A stretch of DNA of 64,000 bases from NCBI GenBank assembly GCA_934101795.1, contig CAKORY010000004.1, forward strand, positions 18,468 through 82,467, in the 5' to 3' direction. The position numbers and the translations under genes were made by a program. This DNA comes from an uncultured Bacilli bacterium (GTDB lineage Bacteria; Bacillota_I; Bacilli_A; RF39; UBA660). The notes below the pieces were generated by a model, which ran no database searches, was not told the DNA's origin, and was given only the letters and a program-made list of their open reading frames with translations. Position 1 is the stretch's first letter; each line of letters begins with the position of its first letter. Of this stretch, positions 16,698 through 20,338 are shown in pieces.

Positions 16698-16725
16698 AAG
16701 ATCTTAAAAATTTAATTAAGATCTT
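16698..16725 (-). terminator. terminator hairpin (palindrome AAGATCTT x2) overlapping the stop of the ToxN-like gene
   Basis: AAGATCTT-12 nt-AAGATCTT followed by TTTTCTTTATTTTT on the minus strand. Confidence 0.5.
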
Positions 16726-17191
16726 CTTTTAGTTCATCTAACATCATTTGTTTTAATTTATCTATGTCAGGAAAAAATAAATTTATTCCACGCTTCTTAT
16801 AACCTAATAATTGTTTAAAATTATTTGTTATTTCCTTTTTTAGGTCAGATCCAACAAATAAAGGCATGTTACTCACAGTATGAACATGGTCTATATATTT
16901 TTCTAAAGTTGGAAATGCATTTTGAAATAATATTACTGCATCGGCATCAGCAATTTTTCTTATCCAAATAGTATTACAAAAACCATACTTTAAAATTTTA
17001 TTATTAATTATTTTTTGATATTTACTTACTTTTGAACTTATAGGAATGAACCATAAAATATCACCATCTTTTATAGTAAAATATGTTGGCCTTTTTTTAC
17101 CTCTTTCGTGATTTACCATTAGTTTATCATCATTCACGTGATAAAAATACTCATCTTTAATATGATATAAATATCCAGTTTTTATTTTCAT
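16712..17191 (-). CDS. ToxN/AbiQ-like endoribonuclease toxin (candidate type III TA toxin)
   Basis: 159 aa with RBS AGGTGAGG. Size and N-terminal pattern (YLYHIKDEYFYHV..., RPTYFTIKDGDILWFIPISSKVSKY) resemble ToxN/AbiQ. A promoter, tandem RNA repeats and a terminator sit immediately upstream. Confidence 0.5.
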   Translation of the reverse strand: MKIKTGYLYHIKDEYFYHVNDDKLMVNHERGKKRPTYFTIKDGDILWFIPISSKVSKYQKIINNKILKYGFCNTIWIRKIADADAVILFQNAFPTLEKYIDHVHTVSNMPLFVGSDLKKEITNNFKQLLGYKKRGINLFFPDIDKLKQMMLDELKEDLN

Positions 17192-17238
17192 AATTTATTC
17201 ACCTCACCTGATATTTGCATTATAACATAAGCCACAAT

Positions 17239-17267
17239 AAAACTCAAGCATTTAACTTGAGTTTTTA
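17239..17267 (-). terminator. intrinsic terminator between the repeat array and the toxin ORF (AAAAACTCAAG-ttaaatg-CTTGAGTTTT)
   Basis: 10-bp stem with flanking A and T runs. It sits where the attenuating terminator lies in ToxIN-type loci. Confidence 0.6.
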
Positions 17268-17270
17268 ACA

Positions 17271-17470
17271 TTTTCGACCGGGATCATTTATTAGTCGCAC
17301 CACCCGGAAGCGAAAAACATTGTCGACCGGACTCACTTGATACCCCGCACCATCCGGAAGCGGAAAACATTTTCGCTGGGATAATTTATTAGTCGCATCT
17401 CCCAGAAGCGACCTCTATTTCGCATTTGGAATAATTTATATCCCGCACCATCCAAGAGCGGCACATTCTC
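17271..17470 (-). ncRNA. candidate type III antitoxin RNA (toxI-like): four tandem 49-50-nt repeats, each with a 5-bp stem showing compensatory substitutions
   Basis: Units at 17271-17319, 17320-17369, 17370-17418 and 17419-17468. The stems (plus strand) are CCGGG/CCCGG, CCGGA/TCCGG, CTGGG/CCCAG and TTGGA/TCCAA around a ~20-nt loop (..ttattagtcgcacca). The block is GC-rich relative to its surroundings and non-coding. A consensus promoter lies directly upstream. Confidence 0.55.
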
Positions 17471-17482
17471 TAATGCAATTTA

Positions 17483-17511
17483 AATATACCACACTTTAAC
17501 GCAATTGTCAA
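17483..17511 (-). promoter_or_regulatory. sigma-A promoter driving the repeat array (-35 TTGACA, 17 nt, extended -10 TGgTATATT)
   Basis: Read on the minus strand about 40 nt downstream of the ppdK stop. A TSS is predicted at about 17476, at the edge of the first repeat. Confidence 0.55.
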
Positions 17512-17553: not shown

Positions 17554-20184
17554 TTATTTACCTTGTTTTCTTAAAATAGCAGATCTAGCTGCTGCTAAAC
17601 GAGCAATTGGAACTCTATATGGAGAGCAAGATACATAATTAAATCCTAGTTTATCACAGAAAGCAACACTAGCTGGATCTCCACCATGTTCACCACAAAT
17701 ACCTAGTGAAAGCTTTGGATTAACACTTCTACCTTTAGTAGCTCCCATTTCCATTAAAAGCCCTACACCATCAAAGTCTATACGAGCAAATGGATCAAAT
17801 TCAAATATTCCTTTTTCATAATAAGAACTTAAGAACTTACCAGCATCATCTCTAGAAAAACCATATGTCATTTGTGTTAAGTCATTTGTTCCAAAACTAA
17901 AGAATTCTGCTTCTTCAGCTATTTTATCAGCAAGAAGTGCAGCACGCGGAATTTCAATCATTGTTCCAACTTCATATTTTAAATCAATACCAGCATTTTT
18001 AATTAATTCATCAGCAGTTTCACAAACTATATTTTTAACATATTTAAGTTCTTTAACTTCACCAACAAGTGGAATCATTATTTCTGGAGTAACATTAATT
18101 CCTTTTTTAGATACATTAATAGCTGCTTCAATAACTGCTCTTGTTTGCATTCTAGCAATTTCTGGATATGTTATAGCTAAACGACATCCTCTATGTCCCA
18201 TCATTGGATTAAATTCTTTTAGTGAATCAATTACTTCATGTAACTCTTCAACTGTTTTACCTAAAGCTTCAGCAAGTTCTTTAATTTCACTTTCTGTTTT
18301 TGGTAAGAATTCATGTAAAGGTGGGTCTAAATATCTAATGACAACACTATATGGAGCCATTGCTTCATATAATCCTTCAAAGTCTTTTCTTTGATATGGC
18401 AAAATATTTTCAAGAGCTTCTTCTCTTTCTTCTAGCGTTGTTGCACAAATCATTTTTCTAAAGTTGAATATTCTATCTTTTTCGAAGAACATGTGCTCTG
18501 TACGGCAAAGTCCAATACCTTCAGCTCCAAATTTTCGAGCTTGAATAGCATCTTTTGGTGTATCAGCATTAGTTCTAACACGTAAATCTCTTGCACTATC
18601 AGCCCATGACATAAATGTTTCAAAATCACCACTAATTGATGCTTCTTCCATATCAAGTTTTCCAGCATATACTTTACCAGTTGAACCATCAATTGATAAA
18701 TAGTCTCCTTCTTTATAAATAGAACCATCAGGCATTTTTAATGTTTTTTCTTCTTCATTTATAACGATTGATGAAGCACCACTAACACAGCAAATACCCA
18801 TTCCACGAGCAACTACTGCAGCATGACTTGTCATACCGCCACGGATAGTTAAAACACCTTTACTTGAATTCATTCCTTCGATATCTTCCGGTGATGTTTC
18901 AAGTCTAACTAAAATACTATCAATACCTTTTTTCTTATTTTCAATTACATCACTTGCAGTAAAGTAAATTTTACCAGTTCCTGCTCCAGGTGATGCTGCT
19001 AAGCCTTCAGCAACTACTTTACCAGTTTTTAAAGCACTATCAGTAAATGTTGGATGTAAAAGTGCATCAAGTTGTTTAGGATCAACCATTAAAACTGCTT
19101 CATCTTTTGTTATCATACCTTCATTTACTAAATCAACAGCAACTTTTATAGCAGCTTTTGCTGTTCTTTTACCATTTCTTGTTTGTAAAATAAATAGCTT
19201 ACCATTTTCAATAGTAAATTCCATATCTTGCATATCTTTATAATGTTTTTCAAGACTTTCAGCAATATTTGCAAATTCAGTATATACTTCTGGCATTTCT
19301 TCTTTTAAAGTTGCAATTGGACTTGGTGTACGAATGCCTGCAACAACATCTTCACCTTGAGCATTAATTAAATATTCTCCGAATAAGGCTTTTTCTCCAG
19401 TTGCAGGATTTCTTGTAAATGCAACACCAGTTCCTGAATTATTTCCACTATTACCATAAACCATTTCTTGAACATTAACTGCAGTTCCCCAACTAGATGG
19501 AATATCATTTATTCTTCTATAATAAATAGCTCTTTCATTATTCCAACTTCTAAATACTGCTTTAACAGCTTCAATTAATTGAGTAAATGGTTCTTGTGGA
19601 AAATCTTCTCCAGCAAATTCTTTATAAGCTTTTTTAAACAAATCTGTAAGTTCTACCATATCATTTTCATCTAAATCAATGTCATTTTTAACACCTTTTT
19701 TGGCTTTAACTTCATCAATTATAGTTTCAAATTTACTTTTAGAATATCCTTTTACTACATCGGCAAACATTTGAATAAATCTTCTATAAGAATCATATAC
19801 AAATCTCTTATTACCAATTTTTTCAGCAAAAGATGAAGCTATCTCATCATTTAAACCTAAATTAAGTACTGTATCCATCATACCAGGCATACTAGCACGA
19901 GCTCCGCTTCGTACACTTACAAGAAGTGGATTGGTTTTATCACCAAATTTTTTGCCGCTTTTTTCTTCAAGTTTTGATAAAGCTTCTTTAATTTGGTTTA
20001 TTACTTCTTCACTTAATACCTTTCCATCATCATAGTATTTGTTACAAGCCTCAGTTGTAACTGTAAATCCACCCGGAACAGGCATACCAATATTAGTCAT
20101 TTCTGCTAAATTAGCCCCTTTACCTCCAAGGAGATTTCTCATATCTTTGTTTCCTTCTTGAAACAAATAAACATATTTTTCCAT
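17554..20184 (-). CDS. ppdK: pyruvate, phosphate dikinase
   Basis: About 876 aa. N-terminal MEKYVYLFQEGNKDMRNLLGGKGANLAEM, and a central TSHAAVVARGMG phospho-His region. The track start at 20196 lies inside the RBS GGAGGA, so the ATG at 20184 is preferred. Confidence 0.95.
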   Translation of the reverse strand: MEKYVYLFQEGNKDMRNLLGGKGANLAEMTNIGMPVPGGFTVTTEACNKYYDDGKVLSEEVINQIKEALSKLEEKSGKKFGDKTNPLLVSVRSGARASMPGMMDTVLNLGLNDEIASSFAEKIGNKRFVYDSYRRFIQMFADVVKGYSKSKFETIIDEVKAKKGVKNDIDLDENDMVELTDLFKKAYKEFAGEDFPQEPFTQLIEAVKAVFRSWNNERAIYYRRINDIPSSWGTAVNVQEMVYGNSGNNSGTGVAFTRNPATGEKALFGEYLINAQGEDVVAGIRTPSPIATLKEEMPEVYTEFANIAESLEKHYKDMQDMEFTIENGKLFILQTRNGKRTAKAAIKVAVDLVNEGMITKDEAVLMVDPKQLDALLHPTFTDSALKTGKVVAEGLAASPGAGTGKIYFTASDVIENKKKGIDSILVRLETSPEDIEGMNSSKGVLTIRGGMTSHAAVVARGMGICCVSGASSIVINEEEKTLKMPDGSIYKEGDYLSIDGSTGKVYAGKLDMEEASISGDFETFMSWADSARDLRVRTNADTPKDAIQARKFGAEGIGLCRTEHMFFEKDRIFNFRKMICATTLEEREEALENILPYQRKDFEGLYEAMAPYSVVIRYLDPPLHEFLPKTESEIKELAEALGKTVEELHEVIDSLKEFNPMMGHRGCRLAITYPEIARMQTRAVIEAAINVSKKGINVTPEIMIPLVGEVKELKYVKNIVCETADELIKNAGIDLKYEVGTMIEIPRAALLADKIAEEAEFFSFGTNDLTQMTYGFSRDDAGKFLSSYYEKGIFEFDPFARIDFDGVGLLMEMGATKGRSVNPKLSLGICGEHGGDPASVAFCDKLGFNYVSCSPYRVPIARLAAARSAILRKQGK

Positions 20185-20338
20185 ATAATCCTCCATATAT
20201 TTATTTTATCATTTATAAGCTAGCTGTACAAGAAAAAACATGTCAAATTTACATACTTTTGATATTAATTAAAAATTAAGAAAATGAACTCAATTATGAA
20301 CGATCTTTGTCAATCGATAAAGGCCATTTTTCCGTTAA

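Follow-up and report, generated by a model that had tools for sequence, protein, structure and literature searches.

A four-unit pseudoknot array upstream of a CptN-family toxin gene: a very probable cptI antitoxin in an uncultured Bacilli bacterium

The window analysed here, a stretch of 64,000 nucleotides, contains a compact locus on its minus strand. A predicted near-consensus promoter is followed by four repeat units, a terminator-like hairpin and a gene for a 159-aa protein. The last unit of the array stops 83 nt upstream of the ATG of this gene and lies on the same strand. The G+C content of the array is 48%, compared with 27% for the whole window. The repeats had earlier been read on the plus strand; the transcribed strand of the array is the minus strand. 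The following parts were located (window coordinates):

17483..17511, minus strand: predicted promoter of the putative cptI precursor (TTGACA at 17511-17506, 17-nt spacer, TG-TATATT)
17488-17483, minus strand: predicted -10 element of this promoter, TATATT preceded by TG
17421..17468, minus strand: putative cptI unit 1, 48 nt (covariance-model match 45.7 bits, E 3e-9)
17373..17420, minus strand: putative cptI unit 2, 48 nt (covariance-model match 46.0 bits, E 2.6e-9)
17323..17372, minus strand: putative cptI unit 3, 50 nt (covariance-model match 56.3 bits, E 8e-12)
17274..17322, minus strand: putative cptI unit 4, 49 nt (covariance-model match 75.5 bits, E 1.4e-16)
17238..17266, minus strand: terminator-like hairpin AAAAACUCAAG-UUAAAUG-CUUGAGUUUU with a U-rich run, between array and toxin gene
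17219..17247, minus strand: second promoter-like site TTGAGT-17-TG-TATAAT (10/12 with TG), upstream of cptN
about 17209-17200, minus strand: RBS-like (Shine-Dalgarno-like) element AGGUGAGGUG for cptN
16712..17191, minus strand: cptN, 159 aa, predicted type III endoribonuclease toxin (family profile and PDB match)

The promoter-like site ahead of the array was the best match of the region in a promoter scan, with 11/12 positions and a TG ahead of the -10. The same TTGACA...TAGTATATT element was found upstream of the arrays in homologous loci. Among the fetched loci that keep their upstream DNA, 80 genome loci have the same layout of promoter, array, terminator and toxin gene.

The 159-aa protein was compared with protein family profiles and known structures. 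It scored 153 bits against the NCBIfam equivalog NF047359, "type III toxin-antitoxin system CptIN family toxin" (cut-off 90), covering profile positions 1-150 of 150. CptN of PDB 4RMO was matched at E 1.4e-19 with residues 4-148 aligned, and BLASTP gave 35% identity to the crystallised CptN of E. rectale (E 2e-23). Validated CptN toxins are 35-44% identical among themselves (PMC4627078). Thus, the value found here lies inside the range known between validated CptN toxins. The relation to the toxin of ToxIN systems is distant: the Pfam profile ToxN_toxin (PF13958) was matched with 16.5 bits (E 0.01), below its gathering score of 25, and the protein is not placed in ToxIN by this score. Searches of the toxin in PDB, Pfam and NCBIfam gave no TenpN-type match, and PADLOC returned only a weak, irrelevant NERD match.

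The catalytic and adenine-specifying residues of the E. rectale toxin, CptN(Er), were located in the alignment. Residues S52-S53 align with CptN(Er) S51-S52 of the triad, and this Ser-Ser pair is invariant in 28 homologues. D82 aligns with CptN(Er) Asp81. Two residues that position the scissile adenine in CptN(Er) are not conserved here: Tyr104 is replaced by an invariant His104 and Ser85 by Ala85. Homologues of the toxin are numerous, with 2578 in the database at E<=1e-5. A toxin relative is encoded in 370 genome_contigs stretches (one genome per species), and the hosts are nearly all uncultured gut or rumen Bacilli, "Tenericutes" or Erysipelotrichaceae MAGs. Judged by its sequence, the downstream 159-aa gene encodes a CptN-family toxin.

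In CptIN loci, tandem repeats are located upstream of the toxin on the same strand. Here, four such units of 48-50 nt were found. Known CptIN repeats are 40-48 nt long and present in 1.9-3.4 copies (PMC3401426); unit length and copy number in the window are at or slightly above the upper end of these 2012 ranges. When the 64-kb window was searched with a covariance model built from homologous units, exactly four matches were obtained, which form a contiguous series on the minus strand (17274-17322, 17323-17372, 17373-17420 and 17422-17468; E 1e-16 to 3e-9). The window yielded no further cptI-like unit, and neither a tRNA nor an Rfam RNA. No family of Rfam 15 matches the array, either for the region at E<=10 or for the whole window at gathering thresholds. 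Tandem Repeats Finder did not report the array even at a minimum score of 30, because the units are so divergent. Their pairwise identity is 48-74% over the whole unit and 62-88% over a 34-nt core, and the 75-85% given in the preliminary description was therefore too high for whole units. That description had also listed a perfectly complementary 5-bp stem in each of the four units, and these stems are present exactly as listed, with their arms 20-21 nt apart. We named this stem helix S2. It is accompanied by a second helix, S1, and the two helices are located as follows:

Unit 1, minus strand: S1 CCGC 17461-17458 / GCGG 17446-17443; S2 UUGGA 17455-17451 / UCCAA 17430-17426 (plus strand TTGGA 17426-17430 / TCCAA 17451-17455)
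Unit 2, minus strand: S1 UCGC 17411-17408 / GCGA 17396-17393; S2 CUGGG 17405-17401 / CCCAG 17380-17376 (plus strand CTGGG 17376-17380 / CCCAG 17401-17405)
Unit 3, minus strand: S1 CCGC 17363-17360 / GCGG 17348-17345; S2 CCGGA 17357-17353 / UCCGG 17331-17327 (plus strand CCGGA 17327-17331 / TCCGG 17353-17357)
Unit 4, minus strand: S1 UCGC 17313-17310 / GCGA 17298-17295; S2 CCGGG 17307-17303 / CCCGG 17282-17278 (plus strand CCGGG 17278-17282 / CCCGG 17303-17307)

The unit types alternate in the window: units 1 and 3 are of the form CCGC...GGA, units 2 and 4 of the form UCGC...GGG. The consensus of a unit begins with the 5' tail AAAUGUUUU or (A/C)AAUGUUUU, followed by S1 (YCGC, 4-5 bp), L1 (UU, 2 nt) and S2 (YYGGR). 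After S2 come the spacer UGGU, the 3' strand S1' (GCGR), L2, S2' (YCCRR) and the 3' tail YCGA. L2 is 12-13 nt long and A-rich and contains AUAAAUG; in unit 4 it reads CUAAUAAAUGAU. The tails are canonical in unit 3 (AAAUGUUUU ... UCGA) and in unit 4, and the 5' tails are atypical in unit 1 (GAAUGUG) and unit 2 (AAAUAGAGG). Every unit boundary, including those before the first and after the last unit, consists of GA followed by (A/C/G)AAU. The linker aagcgRaaaaca, for which toxin recognition or cleavage had been considered, corresponds to the 5' tail together with the upstream strand of S1. Judged by homology with the E. rectale RNA, the boundary GA^(A/C)AAUG beside this linker is likely the processing site.

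The apparent loop of the 5-bp stem holds the 3' strand of S1, and the 5' strand of S1 lies upstream of S2. S1 and S2 therefore cross and form an H-type pseudoknot, the fold that is known, with two coaxial stems, for each repeat of CptIN systems. The covariation of both crossing helices was analysed in the window and in related loci. In the window units alone, 36/36 pair cells of S1 and S2 are standard pairs and four pairs are changed on both sides. The matched substitutions noted earlier at stem positions 1, 2 and 5 were recovered in all four units, and S1 adds a fourth compensated position (UCGC/GCGA in units 2 and 4, CCGC/GCGG in units 1 and 3). Only 2/500 column shuffles reached this pairing and number of double changes, and sliding the 3' partner by 1-3 columns reduced pairing to 31-50%.

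For a broader test we used an alignment, A3, of 77 distinct units from 80 homologous loci and the window. Standard pairs occupy 92.5% of its 770 pair cells. Double changes occur at 7/10 pairs in 126 cells, a count that is inflated by kinship among the loci, which are mostly from gut Bacilli MAGs. The observed pairing or covariation score was reached by 0/500 shuffles, and slid controls gave 30-49% pairing. Every pair of S2 shows double changes. At pair 21-45, GC occurs in 39 and AU in 38 of the 77 units; at pair 18-48, the counts are 38 for CG and 36 for UA. The sequence of S2 thus varies freely so long as pairing is kept: there are 15 distinct fully paired variants, and every unit has at least 4/5 pairs. 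In S1, all units have either UA (60 units) or CG (17 units) at pair 11-31. RNAalifold, which considers nested structures only, independently gave S1 as the consensus. Other parts of the unit are conserved at 90% or more. These are AAUGUU in the 5' tail, UGG in the spacer, CGC/GCG as the core of S1 and, in L2, the largely conserved motif AUAAAUG at alignment columns 36-42.

Both helices are kept by compensatory substitutions, in the window and in about 80 genomes. Selection on RNA structure, as proposed before, could have been contradicted by homologous arrays without the paired changes; the arrays of 80 other genomes keep the same paired changes. The earlier proposal left the choice between hairpin and pseudoknot open. 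The pseudoknot stands, since S1 covaries and is predicted by RNAalifold, and the plain hairpin does not.

A structure prediction without a consistent fold had been named as evidence against the proposal, and nominally this is what the minimum free energy (MFE) folds of single units give. Three units fold into S1 and the remaining one into S2, with z from -1.1 to +0.7, no better than shuffles; the MFE fold of the whole precursor has z = -2.0. We attribute the mixed folds to the pseudoknot and not to an absence of structure, because a nested-only algorithm here meets two crossing helices.

We considered it very unlikely that each unit is only a simple hairpin, consisting of the 5-bp stem and perhaps an outer stem UUUUCG/CGAAAA. 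The MFE fold of unit 4 does give this nested structure, and in the outer stem (11-13/51-53) 84% of cells are paired. However, this outer stem has no two-sided changes. Where column 11 changes from U to C its partner stays A, leaving 20 units unpaired, whereas column 31 changes along with column 11 in 17/17 cases. S1 was moreover predicted independently by RNAalifold, and the homologous crystallised RNA of E. rectale is an H-type pseudoknot (PMC4627078).

Two nested candidates were tried and rejected. A long nested hairpin formed via the unit tails has 0 double changes and is unpaired in 20 units when column 11 changes. Column 11 covaries with column 31 and not with the 3' tail, which excludes this hairpin. 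A local hairpin CGC-UU-CC/GG-U-GCG would add two pairs; these lack double changes, and pair 17-23 is broken in 23 units.

The same data bear on whether the repeats act as DNA, that is as iterons, operator sites or a spacerless CRISPR-like array. Such a role would fit direct repeats that are short and rich in G+C, lie between genes of an AT-rich genome and, as in many operators, each contain an inverted repeat. Yet complementarity is conserved and the arm sequence is not, and a sequence-specific DNA-binding site would not tolerate the arm variation of 15 fully paired S2 variants. Crossing helices are meaningless in duplex DNA, the units abut without spacers, and the array, flanked by a predicted promoter and a terminator-like hairpin, immediately precedes the CptN gene. 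A role as DNA is therefore extremely unlikely, and the earlier argument against iterons and CRISPR holds: the S2 arms vary while their pairing is kept, and spacers are missing.

Least probable, to the point of being nearly negligible, is that the array encodes a small repetitive peptide. A mechanical 43-aa ORF with a GTG start is listed at 17333-17464 on the minus strand, and in 66/76 homologous arrays one or more of the six frames contain no stop. However, with arrays of about 100 nt and six frames to choose from, an open frame carries no information. Since units are 48, 49, 50 or 51 nt long, the frame shifts from one unit to the next, homologous units differ by indels of 1 and 2 nt (UGGU versus UGGCUA, or 1 nt in L2), and the variation tracks base-pairing and not codon periodicity. 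The absence of a coding role, already argued in the preliminary description, is borne out by these unit lengths and 1-2-nt indels.

The locus was compared with the CptIN system of Eubacterium rectale (PDB 4RMO; Rao et al. 2015, PMC4627078). The toxins are homologous, with the equivalog cut-off exceeded here, and the order of promoter, tandem repeats, terminator and toxin is the same. The 45-nt sequence of the E. rectale RNA, CptI(Er), was taken from the primer CptI-WT (AAGUUUACCACUGACCGAUAUGUGGUAUAUAAAUGGUCGGGUUGA) and confirmed in a human-gut contig (L084). In CptI(Er), S1 is formed by about A7-C11 / G22-U26, L1 is G13, L2 is A27-G35 and the scissile residue is A45 (PMC4627078). This long A-rich L2 makes an extended A-minor twist with U30 as the kink uridine, and A29 and U30 are essential (PMC4627078). 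The units of the window have the same order of elements, tail-S1-L1-S2-spacer-S1'-L2-S2'-tail. Both RNAs have an A-rich L2, and A29-G35 of CptI(Er), AUAAAUG, is identical to the conserved L2 motif found here. A U-rich 5' tail and a 3' tail ending in GA are also shared, as is the unit boundary GA^A; CptI(Er) is cut at UUGA^AAG.

There are differences in dimension. Units are 48-50 nt long here and 45 nt in CptI(Er), L1 has 2 nt instead of 1 nt, L2 has 12-13 nt instead of 9 nt, and the spacer between S2 and S1' has 4-6 nt instead of 3 nt. The window carries four divergent copies (48-74% identical), whereas E. rectale has two identical ones. The toxins differ in the His and Ala that replace Tyr104 and Ser85, and a possible extra promoter lies ahead of the toxin gene here, unlike in E. 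rectale CptIN. The host is an uncultured rumen/gut Bacilli lineage (Erysipelotrichaceae MAG), in contrast to the Lachnospiraceae for E. rectale. Our subfamily covariance model aligned to E. rectale-like units over its full length and in register, with weak E-values of 0.2-1. Homology to CptI(Er) at the RNA level is thus marginal, architectural rather than statistically firm.

Other type III systems share part of this organisation. ToxIN (Pectobacterium atrosepticum, Bacillus thuringiensis) and AbiQ/antiQ follow the same logic of a repeat pseudoknot RNA that is processed by, and inhibits, its own toxin, with a terminator that sets the RNA-to-toxin ratio. Unlike the CptI-type units found here, ToxI units are 34-36 nt long, have triplex interactions and form 3:3 heterohexamers (PMC4627078). 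TenpIN (Photorhabdus luminescens) has the type III layout in common with our locus, and its repeat units of 39-57 nt (PMC3401426) are of comparable length; its toxin is TenpN, in contrast to the CptN assignment made here. Taken together, the array is very probably the cptI RNA antitoxin of a chromosomal CptIN type III toxin-antitoxin system, with the 159-aa gene as CptN. It is well supported that the locus is a new example of the known CptIN system and a biologically ordinary type III toxin-antitoxin locus. Neither the four units and their divergence nor the unit types or the possible second promoter place it outside the CptIN family.

A Rho-independent terminator between repeats and toxin gene, as in CptIN loci, was found in the form of a predicted hairpin. 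It consists of a perfect 10-nt inverted repeat (I4), folds as an 11-bp stem in the MFE structure of the precursor and is followed by the U-rich run UUUUAUU. An equivalent hairpin with a T-run lies between array and toxin gene in homologous loci. A consensus terminator scan did not call the hairpin at 17238-17266, because its A/U-rich stem has fewer than three G-C pairs. The second promoter-like site overlaps the 3' arm of this terminator. The motif TGnTAnnnT was present in 57/72 distinct homologous leaders, a count inflated by kinship among the loci, compared with about 17 expected from shuffles; in 36 of those 57 it stands at -28 from the ATG. This extended -10-like element ahead of cptN could be a separate toxin promoter, which would be outside the canonical type III layout.

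We also compared the copies with those of related arrays. Exactly two units were found in 73 relative loci, whereas the window has four. The closest relative, L001 from a rumen Erysipelotrichaceae MAG, encodes a toxin 99% identical to that of the window. Its array is missing a 48-nt stretch of exactly one unit length, comprising the 3' part of unit 1 and the 5' tail of unit 2. Thus, copy number varies between close strains. The first unit of L001 has the S2 helix CUGGG/CCCGG with a U.G pair. The corresponding pair is C-G in unit 4 of the window and U-A in its unit 2; U.G is the intermediate, and the complete three-step compensatory path is thus represented. Window unit 4 is identical in sequence to the last unit of L001 and to unit 2 of L026.

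It is possible, though unlikely, that only the promoter-distal units 3 and 4 are working antitoxins and that units 1 and 2 are decaying duplicates whose stems persist through lack of time. The 73 two-unit relatives and the loss of exactly one unit length in L001 would be in line with this. Units 1 and 2 also score 46 bits, versus 56 and 75 for units 3 and 4, and deviate from the 5' tail AAUGUU that is at least 90% conserved elsewhere. However, both units keep all S1 and S2 pairs at 48-69% identity to their partners, by way of double substitutions and not of shared sequence, and both retain the AUAAAU motif in L2. Unit 1 has its nearest relative in unit 1 of L064 (82%) and does not resemble a degraded copy of unit 3. 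With their deviant 5' tails and scores of about 46 bits, units 1 and 2 may nevertheless be weaker antitoxins.

For 86% of the units in two-unit arrays, the most similar unit occupies the same array position in a different genome, and the cores are identical in only 6/73 arrays. The copies are thus not homogenised. In most of these arrays the two units differ in S2; one such combination is CUGGA/UCCAG (unit 1) with CCAGG/CCUGG (unit 2). Their S1 helices often differ as well. In the E. rectale-like locus L138, the two units differ by compensatory changes in both helices. A rather unlikely explanation is that such an array consists of two long-lived, position-specific antitoxin species and not of interchangeable copies, the window having two such pairs. 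If this were true, selection could keep neighbouring helices orthogonal; each pseudoknot would then fold alone, and the array would be protected from collapse by recombination. A more speculative consequence is that a 2:2 complex could contain two different RNA molecules.

Based on homology to E. rectale CptIN and ToxIN, the following course can be proposed for the putative cptI array and CptN. The terminator would keep the precursor RNA in excess over the toxin mRNA. CptN would cut the precursor at each unit boundary, GA^(A/C)AAU, and leave a 2',3'-cyclic phosphate on A. Each released pseudoknot of 48-50 nt would bridge two CptN monomers, with its 5' tail on one and its 3' end in the active site of the other, and bridging by two pseudoknots would close an inactive 2:2 ring as in the E. 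rectale complex. If transcription stops, for example upon phage infection or loss of the locus, the RNA would decay and free CptN would degrade cellular RNA. As in the known CptIN family, the toxin would arrest growth, its cognate RNA would neutralise it, and the complex would be a 2:2 heterotetramer. Cleavage, antitoxicity and stoichiometry are inferred here by homology. In this model the stems would serve as a scaffold, and they would therefore be free to vary as long as they are paired. The tails, the UGG spacer and the L2 motif would make protein and tertiary contacts, which would be the reason for their conservation.

The analysis places this CptIN subfamily as widespread in uncultured gut and rumen Bacilli. 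A consensus pseudoknot backed by covariation is now available for the antitoxin of this subfamily, and since Rfam has no family that matches the array, the alignment of 77 units could serve as the seed of one. Type III searches that start from the repeats would tend to miss arrays as divergent as this one.

Two further observations concern the surroundings of the array. A short hairpin, CAUU-AGAG-AAUG, can be drawn just ahead of the first unit boundary, at the predicted 5' end of the transcript (window 17471-17480, minus strand); in the window it overlaps the 5' tail of unit 1. Many relatives have an equivalent 5'-end hairpin, CACUU-GAAA-AAGUG. Further upstream, the minus strand carries an 880-aa ORF (17554-20196) that resembles pyruvate phosphate dikinase (PPDK), as named from its sequence, and stops shortly before the predicted cptIN promoter. 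A PPDK-like ORF also adjoins cptIN in 18/68 homologous loci with enough flanking DNA. This adjacency suggests a partly conserved chromosomal site and not a mobile-element context.
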